A stretch of DNA of 64,000 bases from Bacilli bacterium (GTDB lineage Bacteria > Bacillota_I > Bacilli_A > RFN20 > CAG-826): contig JAKSVG010000001.1 of assembly GCA_024408105.1 (NCBI GenBank), forward strand, positions 50,854 to 114,853, in the 5' to 3' direction. Position 1 is the first letter of the stretch. Each line of letters opens with the position of its first letter. Made by a program: the position numbers and the translations under genes. Below, piece after piece: positions 11,576 through 27,481 of this stretch. The notes beneath the pieces were generated by a model. It did no database searches, was not told the origin of the DNA, and saw nothing but the letters and a program-made list of their open reading frames with translations.

Positions 11576-11604
11576 TTAGTATTTTTTTAGTATTTATTTA
11601 GTTT
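11576..11604 (+). repeat. three phased direct repeats TTAGTAT/TTAGTAT/TTAGTTT (11-bp period) abutting the dxs ATG
   Basis: TTAG starts at 11576, 11587 and 11598, which puts a TAG in each of the three frames. Confidence 0.6.
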
Positions 11605-13481: not shown

Positions 13482-13520
13482 AAGCATATCTTGGTTAACA
13501 TAATATTGATATGCTTTTTT
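13482..13520 (+). terminator. intrinsic terminator after dxs (large loop carrying the dif-like half site)
   Basis: 9-bp perfect stem AAGCATATC/GATATGCTT, 17-nt loop, then a T6 run. Confidence 0.7.
13491..13510 (-). repeat. partial dif-like copy (XerD arm plus core only)
   Basis: TTGGTTAACATAATATTGAT matches TTGGTTAACATAATAGTGAT at 18759-18778 at 19 of 20 positions, in the same orientation. The XerC-arm position is not conserved. It lies in the loop and 3' stem of the dxs terminator. Confidence 0.7.
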
Positions 13521-13540: not shown

Positions 13541-14743
13541 ATGTCAAAGATTATTCTCCATATTGATTTGAACCAATTCTTTGTTCGCTGCGAAGAAATT
13601 AAAAATCCTAACCTTATAGGAAAACCAGTTATTATTGGACACGATGGTCGAGGCGGAATTGTTTCAACATGTTCATATGAGGCAAGAAAATTTGGCATCA
13701 AAAGCGGTATGCCAACATTCATGGCTATTAAATTAAATCCAAAAGTGATAATGATTCCAGGCGATTATAAATTTTATTCGTCAATGTCGCGAAAATTTAT
13801 TAATTTTATTAAAACAAAAGCAACGAATATAGAACAAGCCTCAATTGATGAGTGTTATGTTGATATGACAAAAGAATTAAAAGACGTAAAAAATGTTGAG
13901 CAATATCTTTTAGATATGCAAAACGAGTTATATGAAAAAACGGGGTTAAAATGTTCAATAGGCGTAGCTCCCACCAAATTTCTTGCAAAAATGGGGAGCG
14001 ATATGAAAAAACCAATGGGATTAACTATAATTCGCCGAAAAGACATAAGAAAAATGATTTATCCGTTGCCCATTAGTGATTTTTATGGAATTGGTAAGAA
14101 AACTACGCCTAAATTAGAAAAGATTGGAATTAAAACTATCGGTGATTTAGCAATAAGAGTAAATAATGATGACAAAGTCATAAAAAACGAATTAGGCAAA
14201 TTCTTTTTTGCGGTAAAAGATATGATTAATGGACAGAGCAGCGATTATGTAGACTCTGAACCATTTGATCCAAAATCAATTGGTAATAGCCATACGCTTC
14301 CATTTGATACAAATAGCTATAATGATTTGAAAGAAAATTTAGTTATATTGGCCGAGGAAGTATCACAACGAGCAAAAGAAGCAAATAAGGTTGGAACAAC
14401 AGTTCAAGTAGTTCTAAAAGATAACGGATTCAAAGTTATCAATAGATCTATATCATTTAGCAAGCCAACCAACGATTTTGATGTAATCAAATCTTATACA
14501 ATTCAATTGTTAGACAAAAACTACGATAGCGAAAAAATGATTAGGTTAGTAGGAGTAACACTTCAAAATCTAATTAACCCTTCGGAGGTTACTATTCAAA
14601 TGTCTATTTTTGACGATTTTGAGAAGATAAAAGAAGAATGCGCAACAAAGTTGCTCATTTCAGAACTAAATAGAAAAATGAACAAGTCTGTTTTTAAGAC
14701 TGCTGCAGAATTGGAGTCAGAAAAAAGAAATGGAAGTAAATGA
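13541..14743 (+). CDS. dinB: DNA polymerase IV (Y-family)
   Basis: Motifs ILHIDLNQFFVRCE and SIDECYVD, and an HhH region (FYGIGKKT). Confidence 0.92.
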   Translation: MSKIILHIDLNQFFVRCEEIKNPNLIGKPVIIGHDGRGGIVSTCSYEARKFGIKSGMPTFMAIKLNPKVIMIPGDYKFYSSMSRKFINFIKTKATNIEQASIDECYVDMTKELKDVKNVEQYLLDMQNELYEKTGLKCSIGVAPTKFLAKMGSDMKKPMGLTIIRRKDIRKMIYPLPISDFYGIGKKTTPKLEKIGIKTIGDLAIRVNNDDKVIKNELGKFFFAVKDMINGQSSDYVDSEPFDPKSIGNSHTLPFDTNSYNDLKENLVILAEEVSQRAKEANKVGTTVQVVLKDNGFKVINRSISFSKPTNDFDVIKSYTIQLLDKNYDSEKMIRLVGVTLQNLINPSEVTIQMSIFDDFEKIKEECATKLLISELNRKMNKSVFKTAAELESEKRNGSK

Positions 14744-15608
14744 TGCAATCGATTTATTTATCCAATACCTTAGAGTAGAAAAAGGCGTGAGCGAGGATAC
14801 GGTCAAGTCATACTTATATGATTTAAAGCAATTTTTCTTAGCGTTGCCTAAAAAAGATACAGCTGAATTTCTGCCAGTTGATATAGCAGACTTTATTAAA
14901 ATACAAAATAAAAAAATGCTATCAAGTTCTACGGTTTTAAGAAGACTTTCATCGACAAAAAACTTTTATTTATTTTGCCAAAGAGAACATATTATTGATT
15001 TTAATATCAATAAATTTGAAACGCCAAAAGGGATGAAACATCTTCCTATTTCAATATCAGTTGAAGAGGTTGAGAATTTGCTTAATGCACCAAATGAAGA
15101 AAAGCCTGAAGGATTAAGAGATCGTGCAATGCTAGAAACAATGTATTCTAGCGGACTTCGTGTTAGCGAACTTATTATGCTAAAAATATCACAAGTCAAT
15201 TTTGACAAAGGCATCATAAATGTTATCGGTAAAGGAAACAAACAAAGAAAAGTACCAATCGGAGATTTTGCTTTGGATTATGTCCAAAAATATGTTCAGA
15301 CAGCAAGATATAAGAATCCAGGAAAAAATACTCCTTATTTATTTTTAAATAGATATGGTCAACCTATTTCCAGGCAATTCTTTTTCAAACAAGTTAAAAA
15401 ATATGCAGAACAGGTTGGAATAGAAGAAAATATCTCGCCTCATACTTTAAGGCATTGCTTTGCAACGCATCTTTTGGAAAATGGGGCTGAACTTAGAGCG
15501 GTGCAAGAAATGCTCGGACACACAAATATTGCAACAACGCAAATTTATACCAATATTTCAAGCAAGCGCATTATGAGTGCGTATGATTTGTATGTGAAAC
15601 GAAAATAG
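14730..15608 (+). CDS. xerD: tyrosine site-specific recombinase XerD (XerC/XerD family)
   Basis: Catalytic R (GLRVSEL), HTLRHCFATHLL and LGHTNIATTQIYT (H, Y). N-terminal SAM-like domain. It lies next to deoB, as I recall for ripX/xerD in B. subtilis. The XerD-versus-XerC assignment is less certain than the family. Confidence 0.8.
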   Translation: MEVNDAIDLFIQYLRVEKGVSEDTVKSYLYDLKQFFLALPKKDTAEFLPVDIADFIKIQNKKMLSSSTVLRRLSSTKNFYLFCQREHIIDFNINKFETPKGMKHLPISISVEEVENLLNAPNEEKPEGLRDRAMLETMYSSGLRVSELIMLKISQVNFDKGIINVIGKGNKQRKVPIGDFALDYVQKYVQTARYKNPGKNTPYLFLNRYGQPISRQFFFKQVKKYAEQVGIEENISPHTLRHCFATHLLENGAELRAVQEMLGHTNIATTQIYTNISSKRIMSAYDLYVKRK

Positions 15609-16836: not shown

Positions 16837-17791
16837 AAAAATTTCAATTTTGCCTTTATTGACAATAGCCTTAATTAGTTGTTCTAAAACTAAGCAAAGT
16901 CTCATGTGCGTGTGTCCTAAGGGAGCACCTGCACTTAGTTTTTATAACGTAAATTTCGAAGAAATTGAATTCAGATCAGAACCAACACTAGTTTTATCAG
17001 AATTACAAAAAAATGATTTTGATATGGTTGTTTTCGACTCGATTAATGGATTAAAAAGCTGCGTGAAAAACAAAGCTAACTATGCTTTAGCAAAGCTAAT
17101 TACAGGTGGCAATTTCTATTTAGTAGGAATTGATGTAAAGCCATTAAGCGATGGAAGTTATCCTCTCCCAAAGAGTGATGACATAGTTGTTTCGTTTGGG
17201 CAAAACCTAATACCAGATTTAGTTTATTCAAAACTATGTTCTGACTTTTGGCACATAGAAAATAATGCACATTACGTTAATAGCGTAAACGATGCCTTGG
17301 CCGTATTGAAAAGTGGAAGATATAGTGGTGGAAATGCCAATTACGTATTTATTGCTGAACCAGCATTAACAGCAGCATTAAACGACAAAACATGCGAAAC
17401 ATACGGAAAAGTTAACATAGTTAAAAATATACGTTCAGAATGGAAAATTTATTCTGGCCAAGATGGGTTAGCTCAAGCTGGTATATTCGTGAACAAATCT
17501 TCATATGAAAAGAGAAAAGATGAATTGCATAAATATATTGTTAATGTAGAAAATGCTATTGAAACCGCTATAAACGATCCTTTAAGTGTAAAACACGATA
17601 TGGATTCAAAGCTGAGTCTTAATGAACAAATTGAAAAATACGGGTTTAATTCAAACACAGTTCTTCAAGTCCAAAGTGATAACCGCAATGGATTCGGATT
17701 AGTGGGGAAAAATGAATCAATTGACGTTAATAAATTTTTGGAATACTTAGGACAAAGTCCTATACCAGAGGATTATTTTATTGAAGTATGA
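16817..17791 (+). CDS. lipoprotein, ABC-transporter substrate-binding protein (NMT1/TauA-like)
   Basis: Signal peptide with lipobox (ILPLLTIALISC). The size and periplasmic-binding-protein-like composition fit the call. Its start overlaps the deoB 3' end, and its stop overlaps the permease start. The family assignment is tentative. Confidence 0.6.
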   Translation: MSCSKIRKISILPLLTIALISCSKTKQSLMCVCPKGAPALSFYNVNFEEIEFRSEPTLVLSELQKNDFDMVVFDSINGLKSCVKNKANYALAKLITGGNFYLVGIDVKPLSDGSYPLPKSDDIVVSFGQNLIPDLVYSKLCSDFWHIENNAHYVNSVNDALAVLKSGRYSGGNANYVFIAEPALTAALNDKTCETYGKVNIVKNIRSEWKIYSGQDGLAQAGIFVNKSSYEKRKDELHKYIVNVENAIETAINDPLSVKHDMDSKLSLNEQIEKYGFNSNTVLQVQSDNRNGFGLVGKNESIDVNKFLEYLGQSPIPEDYFIEV

Positions 17792-18561
17792 GAAGAATCA
17801 CAAGATTTTATAAAAATAATCGTATTCTAATTTGGACAATTATCGGAACAGGAACATTGTTTTTACTTTGGTGGATAATTTCATTGCTTGTAAATTCAAC
17901 ATTGTTTCCTGGCCCACAAGTGGTTGTTCCAGAATTTGTGGCGCATTTAGGCAAAGGGGGCACATATCTTGCAATTGGAGGAACATTAATAAGGTTATTA
18001 ATCTCGATTGCTTTAGGTTTTTTCTTTGGAATACTTCTAGGTATATTTGGTGGTCTTTCAGTTGGGTTTAGAGCATTTATGAGACCGTTTATTATTGTTT
18101 TTAGAACAATTCCAACGGCAGCAGTCGTTTTCATTATAGTCGCTTTGCTAAAACCAATGTTTGCACCGACAATTATCGTATTTCTAATTGTGTTCCCAAT
18201 TCTCTATGAATCGGTTGTCAGCGGAATTACAAACGTAGATCAATCAATTGTTGACGCACTAAAAATCGATGGAACAAATGTTAGAAAGGCAGTATTCAAA
18301 ATATATTTGCCATTATCATGGAGTTATATTCTTTTAGGATTGGTATCAAGCATTGGCTTAGGAATGAAAGTTGGAATAATGAGTGAAATATTAGCTGGAA
18401 GCGATTCGGCAAATGGGCTTGGAAAGCTAATTCGTGATGCTGCGACAATTGCTGATATGAAAGGCGTTTTGTCCTATTCGTTAATCGCTATCATATTGAT
18501 TGGGTTAATTGATATAGGAATGTATTTCCTGAAGAAAAAATTAAAAAATTATGCAAGATAA
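17788..18561 (+). CDS. ABC transporter permease (nitrate/sulfonate/taurine TauC/SsuC-like family)
   Basis: 6 TM segments and an EAA-loop-like segment (VDQSIVDALKIDGTNVRKAVFKIYLP). No ATPase gene is adjacent. Followed by a terminator. Confidence 0.8.
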   Translation: MRRITRFYKNNRILIWTIIGTGTLFLLWWIISLLVNSTLFPGPQVVVPEFVAHLGKGGTYLAIGGTLIRLLISIALGFFFGILLGIFGGLSVGFRAFMRPFIIVFRTIPTAAVVFIIVALLKPMFAPTIIVFLIVFPILYESVVSGITNVDQSIVDALKIDGTNVRKAVFKIYLPLSWSYILLGLVSSIGLGMKVGIMSEILAGSDSANGLGKLIRDAATIADMKGVLSYSLIAIILIGLIDIGMYFLKKKLKNYAR

Positions 18562-18563
18562 CC

Positions 18564-18590
18564 AAGCCATTGAAATGTGGCTTTTTTTCT
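18564..18590 (+). terminator. intrinsic terminator after the ABC permease
   Basis: Stem AAGCCAT/GTGGCTT, 6-nt loop, then a T7 run. Confidence 0.8.
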
Positions 18591-18629
18591 TGCAAACCAA
18601 GCAAAAATTGGAGTGGTAGTGAATCATAA

Positions 18630-18647
18630 TTAGTAGATATTTAGTAG
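18630..18647 (+). repeat. phased direct repeat TTAGTAG-N4-TTAGTAG
   Basis: Copies at 18630-18636 and 18641-18647, about 115 bp from dif. Confidence 0.6.
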
Positions 18648-18760
18648 TTTTTATCCACAAAAATAATTGTTGAAAGATGGTTATTAGATATTTTATGCAA
18701 TCATTTGTTTTCGAAAAATATTCAAAAAAGATTCGATGAATACTTATATTTATACATTTT

Positions 18761-18788
18761 GGTTAACATAATAGTGATTATACGAAGT
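18761..18788 (-). other. dif: dif chromosome dimer resolution site (XerC arm - 6-bp core - XerD arm)
   Basis: The minus strand reads ACTTCGTATAA-TCACTA-TTATGTTAACC. From memory, B. subtilis dif is ACTTCCTAGAA-TATATA-TTATGTAAACT and the E. coli XerD arm is TTATGTTAAAT. The site lies in the convergent gap where gene orientation flips, with xerD 3.2 kb away. Confidence 0.8.
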
Positions 18789-18799
18789 TATATGTTTTT

Positions 18800-18826
18800 A
18801 AGAAAACGTGCTTTTTAGTCAGCACG
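18800..18826 (-). terminator. intrinsic terminator after rsfS
   Basis: The minus strand has CGTGCT-gactaaaa-AGCACG followed by TTTTCTT. Confidence 0.7.
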
Positions 18827-18833
18827 GCTTCTC

Positions 18834-19157
18834 TTACTTAGATTTTAGTAATTCATCAAGACTAATTCTATCGCGTTCTTCTTTCGTAAAGATGTTTACA
18901 ATTACATGATGAGCATCAATTAATATCCAACCAGATTCTGCTTTCCCTTCAATGTGCCCAATGCTTATTTTATTCTTTTCAAATTCATCTTCAATCAATT
19001 CGACAAGCGCTTTTAACTGTCTGTTACTTCCTGCTGTTGCTAAAACATAATAATCAGCGAATGGGGTTTTATCCTTAACATCAATTACTTGAATATTTTC
19101 AGCCTTATGTTCGTTTAAAACTTTTTCGGCTAAAGACACGGTTTTATCTTTTTTCAT
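18834..19157 (-). CDS. rsfS: ribosomal silencing factor RsfS
   Basis: 107 aa with ENIQVIDVKDKTPFADYYVLATAGSNRQLKAL and GWILIDAHHVIVNIF, typical of RsfS/YbeB. Confidence 0.92.
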   Translation of the reverse strand: MKKDKTVSLAEKVLNEHKAENIQVIDVKDKTPFADYYVLATAGSNRQLKALVELIEDEFEKNKISIGHIEGKAESGWILIDAHHVIVNIFTKEERDRISLDELLKSK

Positions 19158-20262
19158 TATTTAACTCCTTTGGTAAATACATCTCAAAACATTTATCAGT
19201 TAATTCATTGGTAATATCTTTGTTGTGCGCCAATAAATATTTTTTATTATCAATTAACGTATCAATGAACCCTTGCTTGTAATTGGCAAGGCTTGAATTA
19301 ATTAGCCATCTAGAATCAAAACCTCTTGTAGGTTCTATTTTATCGCTCGTATAAACAACCATTCCTAATGGACTCATATTCTCGTTGCCTGTGCAATGAT
19401 ACTTGATTGCCTCTAACATTTCTTCATCTTCAATGCTAAATAATTCTTTGGCAAGGTATTCACCAATAAATTGGTGGTATGAAAACGAAGGAAAATTTAC
19501 ATATTCTGGATAATACTTTTTCATCAGCGAAACCATATTCTCATCTTCTTTATAATAAGTTTTGCCAACATCATGAAGTAATCCAGCAAAATAATATTTT
19601 TCTAAGTTAGACAATTTATTGACCTTTGCGATTCTAAGTGAGAGATTAGCAACTTGAATGCAATGTTCTAAACGATCTTTTGGTAAAATCTTTTCTAGTT
19701 TAGAAAAGAAATATAATTTATGTTTTTCAATATAGTCTAAAACTTTTTCAGGAATATCAATAGATTTCATCTCTCTAAAACTAGTCGAGCTTACATCTCC
19801 ACTCTCGAGAAAACTTAAATCAAGCATATGGTATGTCTTTATAACATTTTGATCTAGTTTTACGCTTGGTCGAGAAACAAATGTTATTTGAGCTAGATTA
19901 GCTATTTCCTCAGCGTTTTTCCATTCACTAAATCTATTGACCTGGTCTGCGCCAATTAATAAATACAATTTATCTTTTGGATATTTTTTCTTGAAATGAC
20001 GAACTGTATCAATTGTGTAGTTAATATCAGCATTACTCTTAATTTCAAAATCTGATATGGTAGTTCCACTCGGGCATTGCTTTATAGCCAATTTTAGCAT
20101 AGCTAATCGTTCTTTATATGTCGTTAATGGCGTTTTCCATCTAGGTGATCTAGCAGGAATGAAAATAACATCAGCATTCAACTTTAAAGAGGCAGCTGAC
20201 GCGATTCGCACATGTCCATTATGGATCGGGTCGAATGTTCCACCGAATAGGATATAATTCAT
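19144..20262 (-). CDS. nadD: fusion protein: nicotinate-nucleotide adenylyltransferase (NadD) + HD-domain YqeK (COG1713, Ap4A hydrolase family)
   Basis: The N-terminal half has GGTFDPIHNGH and ISSTxxR-like SSTSFR. The C-terminal half has the HD domain (LEHCIQV, LLHDVGK, YHCTG, SDKIEPTRG). It is a single uninterrupted 372-codon ORF. Confidence 0.9.
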   Translation of the reverse strand: MNYILFGGTFDPIHNGHVRIASAASLKLNADVIFIPARSPRWKTPLTTYKERLAMLKLAIKQCPSGTTISDFEIKSNADINYTIDTVRHFKKKYPKDKLYLLIGADQVNRFSEWKNAEEIANLAQITFVSRPSVKLDQNVIKTYHMLDLSFLESGDVSSTSFREMKSIDIPEKVLDYIEKHKLYFFSKLEKILPKDRLEHCIQVANLSLRIAKVNKLSNLEKYYFAGLLHDVGKTYYKEDENMVSLMKKYYPEYVNFPSFSYHQFIGEYLAKELFSIEDEEMLEAIKYHCTGNENMSPLGMVVYTSDKIEPTRGFDSRWLINSSLANYKQGFIDTLIDNKKYLLAHNKDITNELTDKCFEMYLPKELNNEKR

Positions 20263-22058: not shown

Positions 22059-24677
22059 TTAGAAATCATCATCATCTTCAAATATTGAGATTTGTGTATA
22101 GCCTTTTTCTTCTTCAACTTTTTCTTCGGTTTGATTAGTAGAATTTTCGTTGTCAGATTCAATGGCAATTGGCTCAGTTTTTATTTCCTTTGATTCAATG
22201 TCTTTCGAGATATAATCATCGCCTTCGATGAACGGTATTTGAAGTGATAATTTTTTAGGCATATCGATTGTCATTTTCGCATAACGATCTATCGGTGTAA
22301 CATGATAGTCATCAACAACAATATCAACCACTTCTTTTATGTTGTTTAACACTCTAATGAGTGTTTTTTCACAATTTGTATCAAGTTTTTTAACATAAAT
22401 TAATTCGTGTGGTTCATTCTTAAATGAGCGGAAAACGATAGATGTTTTTCCAAGTCTATTTGTTAGATTTGTATTTGTAATATCATAGATGCGAACACAC
22501 CCTTTATCAGTAAGCAAAATTACCTTGCCTTTTGTATTATCTGCATCATATGTTTTTATAGCTGAAATAGTTGCTTTTCCTAGGTGAGAAAATGCTTTTA
22601 CTCCACCTGATTTCATGCCAGCAGATGGCAGTCCATTTTCGTTAAACATAGAAGAATTGCCATCACTAGTAAATAAGACGATATTAGAATTTCCAGTTGA
22701 GAAAGCAACATCGCATATTTCATCATCTTGAAGCAATTTCATGCACATTAATGGTTTGGAATATCTAATTACAGAGAAATCGCTTAAACGTAAACGTTTA
22801 ATTTGGCCATATTTCGAAACAAGAATAAAGAATAAATCATCTCTAAACTTTTCGATAACGTAGGCGCGCACAATTTTTTCATTAGGATTTAAGGAAATAA
22901 GATAATTTATGTGCTTTCCTTCATCTTTCCATTTATTTTCATTAATTTCGTGAATTGGAATATATAAGAAGTTTCCAACATTAGTAAAACAGATTAAATA
23001 ATCTGTTGTCATAGCCTTTCCAGAATAAATGCAAGCATCGCCATCTTTCATACCTGGCAATGGATTTACTCCACTGCTTCTATATGATTTAATTGATGAA
23101 TATTTAATATATCCATCACGACTAACAGCAAGCATAATTTCTTCCTTTGAAATAAGGTCACGTTTATCAATACTTATAGAGCCTTCTTTTTCAATAATTT
23201 GAGTTTTTCTAGGCTTACCATACTTGCTCGCAATTGCTTTCAAATCGCTTACTAATAAACGATCTAATTTCTTTCTATCTTGAAGTATTCCGTTAAGTGT
23301 GTCGATCGTAGACTCAAGTTGCTTTTTCTCATTGACTAAAGTAGTTAAATCTGTGTTGGACAACTTATAAAGTTGTAACATAACAATTGCTTCGCTTTGT
23401 GGCTCGCTAAAATTAAATTTTTCTTGTATGTTTTTCTTAGCATCAGCCTTGTCTTTACTAGCACGAATTGTATCAACAACATCATCCAAAATTGAAACTG
23501 CTTTAATTAATCCATCAACGACTTCAAGACGTGATTTAGATTTCCTTAAATCATAGTTCGAACGTCTGGTAATAACATCAACTTGATGGTCAATAAATGC
23601 ATCAATAAAATCTAATAAATTTAATGTTTTTGGTCTTCCGTTAACTATTGCAACATTATTTGCTGAGTATGAGGTTCTTAGTCCAGTTTTATTCATTAAA
23701 TAATTATGAATAACTTCAACATTTGCTTCTTTCTTTAAGTCGATTGCAATGCGTAAACCATCTCTTCCTGATTCATCTCTAACTTCAGAAATTCCGGAGA
23801 CGACCTTATCATGAATTAATTTATCAATCTCGTAAACGAGATTTGTTATTGTTGATTTATAAGGAATTTCACTAACAATAATTTGTTTTTCGTTTTTGTT
23901 ATCTACAATTTCAGTTTTAGCAGCAATTTCAATTCTTCCACGCCCAGTCAAATATATATCTTCTAAACCTTTGCTTTTATAGATATATCCACCACTAGGA
24001 AAATCTGGGCCAGGAATAAATTGCATCAAATCAATAGGTTCGACACGAACATGGCCAATTCGATAAATAACTGCATCTATTACTTCGCAAAGATTGTGTG
24101 TTGGTATTTCAGTTGCTAAAGCAACTGCAATTCCCTCGGATCCGTTAACTAAAAGGTTTGGGAATCTAGCAGGCATAACGACTGGTTCAAAATCAGTGTC
24201 ATCAAATGTTAAGGCCATATCAACAGTTTCTTTATCTATATCTCTCACCATTTCTTCAGCTATTTGGCTGAGTCTGGCTTCGGTATAACGATATGCTGCT
24301 GCTGGGTCACCATTTATAGATCCATTGTTACCTTGAAAGTCAATTAATGGATTATTTAATTTCCAATCTTGTGACATTCTCACTAAAGCTTCGTAAATTG
24401 ATGAATCACCATGTGGATGATATTTCCCCATAACTTCGCCGACTGTGTGAGCAGATTTTCGTGTTGGTCGAGTGAAAATATTGCCAGTTTTATACATAGA
24501 GAAGATTATTCTTCTCTGAACAGGTTTTAAACCATCTCTCGCATCAGGTATTGCTCGATCTTGAATAACATATTTTGCATATGTCGCATAACGAGTCGCC
24601 ATTATTTCTTCGACTGTTTCATTATGAATGTTTTCTTGTATTTCAATTTCGACGGGTTCTATTTTTCTTTTTGCCAT
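22059..24677 (-). CDS. parC: DNA topoisomerase IV subunit A (ParC), with a long acidic C-terminal tail
   Basis: Motifs AIPDARDGLKPVQRRI (VQRR rather than the VHRR of GyrA), HPHGDSSIY and the catalytic-Tyr motif AAAYRYTEARL. I saw no GyrA box. It lies downstream of parE and next to plsY, as in other Firmicutes. Confidence 0.85.
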   Translation of the reverse strand: MAKRKIEPVEIEIQENIHNETVEEIMATRYATYAKYVIQDRAIPDARDGLKPVQRRIIFSMYKTGNIFTRPTRKSAHTVGEVMGKYHPHGDSSIYEALVRMSQDWKLNNPLIDFQGNNGSINGDPAAAYRYTEARLSQIAEEMVRDIDKETVDMALTFDDTDFEPVVMPARFPNLLVNGSEGIAVALATEIPTHNLCEVIDAVIYRIGHVRVEPIDLMQFIPGPDFPSGGYIYKSKGLEDIYLTGRGRIEIAAKTEIVDNKNEKQIIVSEIPYKSTITNLVYEIDKLIHDKVVSGISEVRDESGRDGLRIAIDLKKEANVEVIHNYLMNKTGLRTSYSANNVAIVNGRPKTLNLLDFIDAFIDHQVDVITRRSNYDLRKSKSRLEVVDGLIKAVSILDDVVDTIRASKDKADAKKNIQEKFNFSEPQSEAIVMLQLYKLSNTDLTTLVNEKKQLESTIDTLNGILQDRKKLDRLLVSDLKAIASKYGKPRKTQIIEKEGSISIDKRDLISKEEIMLAVSRDGYIKYSSIKSYRSSGVNPLPGMKDGDACIYSGKAMTTDYLICFTNVGNFLYIPIHEINENKWKDEGKHINYLISLNPNEKIVRAYVIEKFRDDLFFILVSKYGQIKRLRLSDFSVIRYSKPLMCMKLLQDDEICDVAFSTGNSNIVLFTSDGNSSMFNENGLPSAGMKSGGVKAFSHLGKATISAIKTYDADNTKGKVILLTDKGCVRIYDITNTNLTNRLGKTSIVFRSFKNEPHELIYVKKLDTNCEKTLIRVLNNIKEVVDIVVDDYHVTPIDRYAKMTIDMPKKLSLQIPFIEGDDYISKDIESKEIKTEPIAIESDNENSTNQTEEKVEEEKGYTQISIFEDDDDF

Positions 24678-24678
24678 A

Positions 24679-26619
24679 TTATTTTACCTCGTCAATGAAT
24701 GAGTCAACTTCGTTGAAGTTAACATTTTCTTCAACCCATTGTCTTCTTATAACTGTGTCATTTCCCATTAAAATCGATATTTCGCGAGCTGCAGAAACAG
24801 GGTCTTCAATAGTGACTTTGCACAATTGTCTTTGGGATGGATCCATTGTGGATTCCCATAATTGATTAGCGTCCATTTCGCCTAGACCTTTATAACGAGA
24901 AATTCTATATCCTGCGCCAATTTCTTTCTTTGCTTTTTCTAAATCAGCTTCATCCCATGCATATCTATAAACTAACTTATGATTCACTTCTTTAGAAACA
25001 CGATATAAAGGTGGCATTGCAACAAACAATTTTCCTTTTAAAATAAGTGGTTTCATATAGTTATAGAAAAATGTTAAAAGCAATGTTTGAATATGAGCAC
25101 CATCTGTATCAGCGTCTGTCATAATAATAACTTTTCCGTAATGTGAATTATCAGCTTTGAAGTCCTCACCAAAACCTGCTCCAATAGTATTAACAATTGT
25201 TGCAAATTCTTCATTTTTGAGCATTTTTTCCGTTGATACGGAATCCGTATTTAAAGGTTTACCACGAAGTGGTAGAATTGCTTGATGTAAATTGTTTCTT
25301 CCTTTTCTAGCGGTTCCTCCAGCAGACTCACCTTCAACAATAAAAAGTTCGTTTTTATCATAATCCTTTGATTGGCATGGAGTTAATTTATCAGACAAAA
25401 TCATTTCAGATTTTGCACGTTTCGTATTTCTTATCTCATCCTTTGCTTTTCTTGCAGCAACACGAGCATTTTGCGCATCAATGCATTTTTTAATTAAGTT
25501 TACAGCAAACTCTTTATTTTCGTTAAGATAATAACTAAAGTTATTATACACAAAGTTACTTACAATAGTTAGTGCCTCAGGCGTTCCAAGTTTTTGCTTT
25601 GTTTGTCCTTCATATTCTAACTTTTGTTCAGGGATCTTTAATGATATAACTGCGGTTAAACCTTCTCTTATATCAGTGCCCTCTAATTTAATTTTGCCTT
25701 TTAAAAGTTGGTTCTCTTCAGCATAATCATTTACTGCTTTCGTGATTCCTGATCTAAATCCGCTTTCGTGAGTACCACCATCTTTTGTTCTTACATTATT
25801 GGCATACGAATAAATATATTCGCCATAATCTCTTGAACAATATTGCATAGCAATATCTATCTTGATCGTGTCTTCTTCGCCAGAAAATGTTAACACTTCC
25901 CCGAGTTGCGATTTTTCTTTGCAAAGATTGGAAACGTATTCTTTAATGCCTTCTTTATAGCAAAACTCAACTTTTTCTCCATTTCTTTCATCAGTAAGAG
26001 CAAAAGTTACGCCTTTTAACAAAAATGCACTTTCTTGAATATGATTGGAAATAATCTCAAATTGAAAATTGGTTGTAGAAAATATTTTTGAATCAGGTTT
26101 GAACCTTACTAAAGTGCCGTGCTTCTTGGTACTACCAAGAACCTCTAGAGGTATAGCAAGTTTACCACCATTTTCAAAACGAAGATGATGGATACTGCCT
26201 GACTTAAAAACAGTAATGTCGCAATACTCACTAAGTGCGTTTGTAACACTTGATCCAACACCATGAAGACCAGCTGAAGAAGCATATACTTTAGATGAGA
26301 ATTTTCCACCACTATGCAGTGTGGAAAAAATTAATTGAACAGCTGGCATACCAGTTTGTTTATGAATATCGACCGGAATACCTCTGCCTTCATCTAAAAC
26401 GGAAACGGAACCATCTTTATGAATAGTTATGGTGATTTTATCACCATATCCGTTTAAAGCTTCGTCAACAGCGTTGTCTATAATTTCCCAAACAAGATGA
26501 TGTAAACCGGTCGAATTTGTTGAACCGATATACATTGCAGGACGTTTTCTAACGCCCGCTAATCCTTCGAGAATTTCGATGTCAGCCGCTGAATAATTAT
26601 TACTTTTCTCTAGTGCCAT
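24679..26619 (-). CDS. parE: DNA topoisomerase IV subunit B (ParE)
   Basis: GHKL ATPase (LHHLVWEIIDNAVDE, GLHGVG) and TOPRIM (EGESAGG, IMTDADTDGAHI). The ATG at 26619 gives an N-terminus of normal length; the ORF-track start is TTG. Confidence 0.85.
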   Translation of the reverse strand: MALEKSNNYSAADIEILEGLAGVRKRPAMYIGSTNSTGLHHLVWEIIDNAVDEALNGYGDKITITIHKDGSVSVLDEGRGIPVDIHKQTGMPAVQLIFSTLHSGGKFSSKVYASSAGLHGVGSSVTNALSEYCDITVFKSGSIHHLRFENGGKLAIPLEVLGSTKKHGTLVRFKPDSKIFSTTNFQFEIISNHIQESAFLLKGVTFALTDERNGEKVEFCYKEGIKEYVSNLCKEKSQLGEVLTFSGEEDTIKIDIAMQYCSRDYGEYIYSYANNVRTKDGGTHESGFRSGITKAVNDYAEENQLLKGKIKLEGTDIREGLTAVISLKIPEQKLEYEGQTKQKLGTPEALTIVSNFVYNNFSYYLNENKEFAVNLIKKCIDAQNARVAARKAKDEIRNTKRAKSEMILSDKLTPCQSKDYDKNELFIVEGESAGGTARKGRNNLHQAILPLRGKPLNTDSVSTEKMLKNEEFATIVNTIGAGFGEDFKADNSHYGKVIIMTDADTDGAHIQTLLLTFFYNYMKPLILKGKLFVAMPPLYRVSKEVNHKLVYRYAWDEADLEKAKKEIGAGYRISRYKGLGEMDANQLWESTMDPSQRQLCKVTIEDPVSAAREISILMGNDTVIRRQWVEENVNFNEVDSFIDEVK

Positions 26620-26721
26620 ATATGTAAAACTCTTCAATTTGTGAAATTGATTATACCAAGAAAAAAGTTGAAAAGTAATCTACTTTTTTAGTATCATTGT
26701 TGAGGTTGTGAGGTTTTGAAC

Positions 26722-27453: not shown

Positions 27454-27481
27454 TAGTATGTCGTTAGTAGTTTTTTAGTAG
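27453..27481 (+). repeat. phased direct repeats ATAGTAT-N4-TTAGTAG-N4-TTAGTAG
   Basis: Copies start at 27453, 27464 and 27475 (11-bp period). The first overlaps the plsY stop codon. Confidence 0.6.

Follow-up and report, generated by a model that had tools for sequence, protein, structure and literature searches.

The 28-bp sequence at positions 18761-18788, on the minus strand of the 64-kb stretch of DNA analysed here (hereafter the window), is very probably the dif site carried by the chromosome of an uncultured lineage of low-GC Bacilli from gut or rumen, and the window probably spans the terminus region. This identification, proposed in the first-pass annotation, is upheld by a 28-bp conservation footprint in about 50 species, by the uniqueness of the site in the window under a weight matrix, by an adjacent XerD orthologue and by an element inserted at the corresponding site of a relative. 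The site is a further member of a well-known class, and its annotation as dif is correct but ordinary.

The dif site and its arms

The sequence and the position first given for the 28-mer were both recovered. The following elements can be distinguished at the site and on either side of it:

18761-18788, minus strand: dif site, 28 bp, ACTTCGTATAA-TCACTA-TTATGTTAACC (full 28-mer ACTTCGTATAATCACTATTATGTTAACC)
18778-18788, minus strand: XerC-type arm of dif, ACTTCGTATAA, matching the B. subtilis arm at 9 of 11 positions
18772-18777, minus strand: central region of dif, TCACTA, the predicted locus of strand exchange
18761-18771, minus strand: XerD-type arm of dif, TTATGTTAACC, matching the B. subtilis arm at 9 of 11 positions and the E. 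coli XerD arm at 9 of 11
18564-18583, plus strand: terminator-like hairpin at the end of the left (plus-strand) operon
18807-18826, minus strand: terminator-like hairpin at the end of the rsfS (minus-strand) operon

The arm counts first given are right when checked against the reference dif sequences in print, ACTTCCTAGAATATATATTATGTAAACT for B. subtilis and GGTGCGCATAATGTATATTATGTTAAAT for E. coli (Kono et al. 2011, PMC3025954). The site lies in a convergent gap of 272 bp (18562-18833) bordered by an ABC permease gene (17788-18561, plus strand) and by rsfS (18834-19157, minus strand); the gap had been described as lying between terminators, and hairpins are indeed found on both sides of dif. 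A small ORF in this gap was considered and rejected, as the alignment of relatives shows no coding conservation.

The centre TCACTA had been called atypical, a description that does not hold for the clade, since the central hexamer is free to vary among relatives and includes TGACTA, TGGCTA, TGTCTA, TTTCCG and TTGTCA. Overlapping the XerC arm on the plus strand, at 18779-18791, is TATACGAAGTTAT, the exact 13-bp arm of loxP. A lone loxP-like arm is no lox site, and its presence is a curiosity of the similarity among tyrosine-recombinase targets.

Conservation of the site among relatives

A search with the Xer protein, restricted to one genome per species, yielded 80 loci, of which the closest 56 (L001-L056) belong to metagenome-assembled genomes (MAGs) of uncultured Bacilli sampled in the rumen, the gut and horse faeces; Candidatus Fiminaster equi is one of them. 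The XerD proteins of relatives that carry dif are 44-88% identical to that of the window and come from different species and more than 50 genomes. Throughout L001-L056, apart from two exceptions which are both short loci, a 28-mer with 0-5 arm mismatches is located 2-6 kb downstream of xerD, and in every relative locus save L049 it is on the strand opposite xerD.

Across 50 loci, positions 1-12 and 17-28 have a high information content and positions 13-16 a low one; it is about zero outside the 28 bp, where the flanks of the relatives cannot be aligned. Within the centre only positions 12 (T) and 17 (A) are conserved and positions 13-16 are variable. The clade consensus of the XerC arm is ACTTCGCATAA, with no variation at positions 3, 5, 6 and 9-11 and at least 92% conservation at positions 1, 2, 4 and 8; in the XerD arm, TTATGT is invariant in the 50 loci. 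The consensus of the whole site, ACTTCGCATAATGTCTATTATGTTAACT, is identical to E. coli dif at 23 of 28 positions. Such an 11-6-11 footprint with a variable centre has the shape expected of dif, and the site is evidently selected as a 28-bp unit.

The linked recombinase and its presumed partner

A gene for a XerC/D-family recombinase, said to lie 3.2 kb from the site, was measured at 3153 bp from dif. It follows the gene for a DNA polymerase:

13541-14743, plus strand: dinB (DNA polymerase IV), overlapping the start of xerD by 14 nt
14730-15608, plus strand: xerD (ripX) orthologue, a 292-aa tyrosine recombinase, assigned from NCBIfam, PDB and synteny

The recombinase reaches 326.4 bits against the NCBIfam XerD model TIGR02225, 3 bits short of the cut-off (329.6), and 295 bits against the XerC equivalog model (cut-off 335), and it passes the cut-off of the subfamily model NF001399; the XerS model NF003462 gives 132 bits against a cut-off of 267. 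Its best PDB match is E. coli XerD (1a0p, 8.5e-53), to which it aligns over the full length with all the catalytic residues of XerD (R, K, HxxR, H and Y) present. The order dinB-xerD-deoB is kept across the clade and the xer-deoB pair is also found in Neobacillus and Coprobacillus. As in Bacillaceae, the recombinase gene is beside deoB (drm), and in B. subtilis itself ripX likewise adjoins it. The conserved adjacency to deoB and the match to 1a0p with aligned catalytic residues identify the recombinase as the RipX/XerD orthologue. An identical XerD protein is recorded in GCA_024500545.1. Because the two open reading frames overlap by 14 nt, dinB and xerD probably form one operon.

No XerC/CodV paralogue was found in the 64 kb, and no second Xer gene within 10 kb of the relatives' xerD; likewise, the 64-kb window contains no gene for an FtsK/SpoIIIE translocase. 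These observations bear on an alternative in which one recombinase suffices for dif: the XerD-like protein encoded nearby would bind both arms and perform both exchanges, as do XerS at difSL and XerH at difH. Single-recombinase systems are typically gene-linked, and a single recombinase would explain why the linkage between xerD and dif, at 2-6 kb in about 50 species, is kept across the clade. The score of the protein just below both the XerD and the XerC equivalog cut-offs points in the same direction, as does the lack of a second Xer gene, both in the window and in the 10-kb surroundings of xerD in relatives.

Other features speak against this alternative, which we consider improbable. The site is a canonical dif with two unlike conserved arms (ACTTCGCATAA versus GGTTAACATAA, read on the opposite strand), and its left arm is similar to the B. 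subtilis CodV arm. Across the clade, isolated 10-mers of the XerD arm are in excess (58 versus 8.4 expected), whereas isolated XerC arms occur at chance level, which suggests that the linked protein recognises the XerD arm alone. A phage-associated site in one relative (L072, described below) has a perfect XerC arm but a XerD arm that is degenerate, as is typical of elements relying on XerC catalysis. Although the XerS/difSL system of streptococci and lactococci and the XerH/difH system of epsilon-proteobacteria resemble the present case in the linkage of recombinase gene and site, their sites are atypical in sequence and length, difSL being 31 bp long (PMC3025954), and here the dif is canonical and 28 bp long. 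The XerS score (132 against 267 bits) and the canonical 28-bp site do not fit a module of the XerS/difSL type. We therefore assume a two-recombinase system and think that a XerC partner is encoded elsewhere, since the arms differ and are each conserved, the half-sites of the clade are of the XerD type only and the L072 phage site has a perfect XerC arm.

An insertion at dif in a relative and the uniqueness of the site

Comparison of L072 with L056, which are 90% identical, revealed a 5,428-bp insertion exactly at dif in L072 that is absent from L056. The inserted element and its borders are as follows:

L072 14757-14784: intact dif at one border of the insertion
L072 14785-20211: filamentous-phage-like element, 5.4 kb
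L072 20212-20239: hybrid site at the other border, combining the XerC arm of the chromosome with a degenerate XerD arm

The element encodes a Rep_OBD protein (Pfam, 1.3e-15), a Zot-like ATPase and small membrane proteins; the Zot match is marginal (20.9 bits against a Pfam threshold of 20.3), and a comparison of the element's proteins with PHROGs gave no match. With Rep and Zot-like genes in a 5.4-kb element located at dif, although in a relative and not in the window, this layout follows the pattern of filamentous phages that integrate via Xer (CTX-phi-type IMEX). It provides indirect evidence that the site family is recombinationally active in nature and that the orthologous site has been used by an integrating element.

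Another relative, L027, contains a second dif-like sequence 699 bp from dif on the XerC-arm side, in which 9 nt separate a perfect XerC arm from an arm resembling that of XerD (ACTTCGTATAATCGACCAAGTTATGTAAAC). This second sequence may be an integration remnant.

Sites of the same dif type, ACTTCGYATAAT-N5-TTATGTWAA, are contained in 105 IMG/VR viral contigs (L081-L185) of 28-66% GC, indicating a widespread, canonical form. Predicted (pro)viruses appear to make wide use of this type of dif, or at least to carry it. The frequency of such sites in viral contigs, and the phage-like element at the orthologous site of L072, could also be taken to mean that a mobile element owns the 28-mer or left it behind as a Xer target (an attachment or resolution site of a phage or plasmid), that it is not the chromosomal dif, and that the change in gene polarity is local and has nothing to do with the terminus. 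This is very unlikely: the site is surrounded by housekeeping genes only, in a window without phage or plasmid genes; it is single, with no flanking pair; the site and its synteny are conserved down to 44% XerD identity; and the polarity bias stretches over no less than 18 kb to one side of dif and 45 kb to the other.

The chromosomal dif is also unique within the DNA analysed. No other site in the window comes within 5 arm mismatches of B. subtilis dif, and there is one copy in the 64-kb window and generally one per related locus of about 20 kb. A chance resemblance, for which regional AT-richness and nothing more would argue, is ruled out for this AT-rich intergenic DNA by shuffles of the window, none of which matched the arms at up to 3 mismatches, by a weight matrix derived from 49 relatives, to which the window itself did not contribute and under which dif scores 38.0 bits against -3.6 for the next best position in 64 kb and 9.1 for the best of 20 shuffles, and by a footprint of exactly 28 bp.

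Gene polarity, skew and the probable terminus region

All 16 coding sequences to the left of dif are on the plus strand, as had been reported; to the right there are 43, with 40 on the minus and 3 on the plus strand, and not 40 of 44 as in the first count (small ORFs are included in these counts). Left of dif the total GC skew is positive and right of it negative, the cumulative G-C curve has its maximum at 18810, and the sign of the skew changes at the orthologous dif in 47 of 52 relatives.

As independent proof of a terminus, the GC skew is weakened by its behaviour at third codon positions, where the plus-strand value is -0.148 on the left and +0.085 on the right, opposite in sign to the total. 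The total skew must then come from codon positions 1 and 2, hence largely from gene orientation, and constitutes no independent evidence of a terminus. Intergenic skew has the expected direction (+0.21 on the left, -0.03 on the right) in a small number of bases. The word GAAGAAG changes orientation across dif, from 4:0 to 3:12 in the window and with a ratio of 542:83 clade-wide, but it is a coding-biased word whose orientation is inseparable from coding-strand bias.

The order of genes around dif in the clade is relA-hisS-aspS-tkt-nusB-xseA-xseB-dxs-dinB-xerD-deoB-(ABC)-dif-rsfS-nadD/yqeK-yqeH-yqeG-parC-parE, and its conservation clade-wide shows that the junction is no assembly artefact. Together, the convergent polarity over 64 kb and the conserved dif are good evidence of a terminus region, and the two replichores would meet in the gap that holds dif. 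The earlier statement that the replication forks converge here is retained in softened form: local polarity and skew fit a terminus region, but "here" is too strong and should read "near here", as Kono et al. (PMC3025954) conclude that replication terminates near dif and not at dif.

Genes for enzymes that act at the terminus flank dif on both sides, xerD at 3.2 kb and parC-parE (topoisomerase IV, 22059-26637) at 3.3-7.9 kb, an arrangement that is conserved in the clade. Among the genes to the right, one 372-aa ORF (19144-20262, minus strand) is a fusion of nadD (nicotinate-nucleotide adenylyltransferase) with yqeK (Ap4A hydrolase). A GGAG, GAGG or AGGA word is found within 20 nt before the start codon of 24 of the 59 genes of the window.

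Isolated XerD half-sites

Apart from dif itself, the window contains one exact copy of the XerD arm:

13493-13503, minus strand: isolated XerD-arm half-site, TTATGTTAACC, exact 11-mer, 38 nt upstream of the dinB ATG

This half-site has the same orientation as in dif and is located in a hairpin loop followed by a T-run. It is kept at the orthologous spot upstream of dinB in 41 of 51 relatives. Copies of the XerD arm with one mismatch are at chance level in the window (5 versus 4.7 expected), and only the exact copy at 13493 is conserved. In a sub-clade formed by L041-L044 and L053, 4-6 isolated XerD-arm half-sites in both orientations are found within about 6 kb of dif, an accumulation that is reminiscent, by analogy, of the XDS clusters of B. 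subtilis.

XDS are XerD sites at which, in the terminus of B. subtilis, SMC complexes are unloaded (Karaboja et al. 2021, as related in PMC11894783 and PMC13220808). The likeness, drawn from this description of XDS, lies in isolated XerD arms without a XerC arm near the terminus; the difference is that the conserved copy is here in the 5' region of xerD's own operon. This location suggests autoregulation, instead of or beside SMC unloading, and both autoregulation of xerD and an XDS-like unloading of SMC are possible roles for the half-site.

A DnaA box and TTAGTAG repeats beside dif

Between dif and the end of the left operon are two further elements, and arrays of the same heptamer occur elsewhere in the window:

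18651-18659, plus strand: perfect DnaA-box consensus, TTATCCACA, 101 bp from the XerD arm, the sole perfect copy in 64 kb
18630-18647, plus strand: TTAGTAG-N4-TTAGTAG, two direct repeats with an 11-bp period, pointing toward dif
11576-11604, plus strand: TTAGTA(G/T) array abutting the dxs ATG
27464-27481, plus strand: TTAGTA(G/T) array after the plsY stop

One or two DnaA-box-like sequences, TT(A/T)TCCACA, are strongly enriched beside the dif of relatives, mostly at 85-87 bp from the XerD arm. The TTAGTAG pair (CTACTAA-N4-CTACTAA on the other strand) occurs in 49 of 54 loci, its distance from the XerD arm being 80-125 bp overall and about 113-125 bp in most. The same conserved module also includes a weak GATTTAATC-like element, found at 18-27 bp on the XerD-arm side of dif; outward from dif the order is this element, a hairpin, TT(A/T)TCCACA and CTACTAA-N4-CTACTAA. 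In L001-L056 the hairpin, the DnaA-box-like motifs and the repeats lie 60-135 bp from the XerD arm with near-fixed spacing, the intervening DNA not being conserved, and the module remains with dif where the neighbouring gene differs.

We propose tentatively, and with some doubt, that in this clade a larger, conserved terminus module may be built around dif, which would then be more than a bare 28-mer. This proposal is based on the near-fixed spacing of the DnaA box (one or two, at about 86 bp from dif) and TTAGTAG repeats (at about 114 bp), on the fact that the module tracks dif, on the half-site in front of dinB-xerD and on the position of dif between xerD and parC/parE.

Arrays of 2-3 TTAGTA(G/T) heptamers with an 11-nt period are also seen at other orthologous spots, often after a short AT-rich hairpin. 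Clade-wide, 109 of 114 TTAGTAG arrays are intergenic, and all 109 are downstream of a gene 3' end, 91 in sense and 18 in antisense. Three TTAGTAG repeats put TAG stops in all three frames. A fork trap of the RTP/Ter or Tus/Ter kind was considered for these repeats and rejected: the pairs nearest dif are inverted about dif, but outer copies, at 27464-27481 in the window and 10-14 kb out in many relatives, have the wrong polarity. Moreover, TTAGTAG units are direct repeats, whereas the RTP type consists of inverted repeats. A KOPS-like reading was set aside because the strand skew of the repeats is merely 122:56, and a function as ribosome-binding or promoter element is unsupported, the arrays occurring in both orientations to genes and always 3' of a gene end. 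At gathering thresholds the whole 64 kb is without any Rfam match (no tRNA, riboswitch or T-box) and the dif gap gives chance-level matches only, so that the conserved dif flank and the TTAGTAG arrays correspond to no known RNA family.

Comparison with known systems and proposed mechanism

A close parallel is the dif/RipX(XerD)/CodV(XerC) system of B. subtilis. Its site too is 28 bp long with an 11-6-11 layout, agrees with the present one at 18 of 22 arm positions and is located, as the present one probably is, in the terminus of a Bacilli chromosome; PMC13220808 summarises what RipX-CodV and the translocases SpoIIIE/SftA do. The system described here differs from the B. subtilis type in that xerD is only 3.2 kb from dif and that this linkage is conserved in the clade, whereas Neobacillus has no dif within 10 kb of its xerD homologue. 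Unlike in B. subtilis, no fork trap of the RTP/Ter type is evident here.

With the E. coli dif/XerC/XerD/FtsK system, the likeness comprises 9 of 11 positions in the XerD arm, 23 of 28 in the clade consensus and a XerD that aligns with 1a0p. The difference resides in the outer half of the XerC arm, which is ACTT here and GGTG in E. coli. The G-rich KOPS motif of E. coli is nearly absent from this window of 33% GC.

By reference to these systems, an odd number of crossovers after replication would leave sister chromosomes joined as a dimer. The XerD-type recombinase encoded 3.2 kb away would bind the TTATGTTAACC arm and a XerC/CodV-type partner encoded elsewhere the ACTTCGTATAA arm; two such Xer-dif complexes would synapse at the division septum, where a translocase of the FtsK/SpoIIIE family would activate XerD, and two pairs of strand exchanges over the 6-bp centre would resolve the dimer to monomers. 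The XerC partner, the dependence on FtsK, recombination at this copy and a position opposite oriC are all inferred.

The identification places dif and the terminus region in a little-known uncultured lineage of gut and rumen Bacilli. It can be of use for orienting MAG contigs, for estimating growth rate from read coverage and for spotting mobile elements integrated at dif. Otherwise, the site joins the hundreds of canonical dif sites that have already been predicted. The potentially new biology is in the neighbourhood of dif, with a XerD half-site before xerD's own operon and a module of DnaA box and repeats. If such a terminus module is real, XerD could regulate its own operon or unload SMC complexes via the half-sites, and DnaA or a repeat-binding protein could couple the end of replication to dimer resolution.
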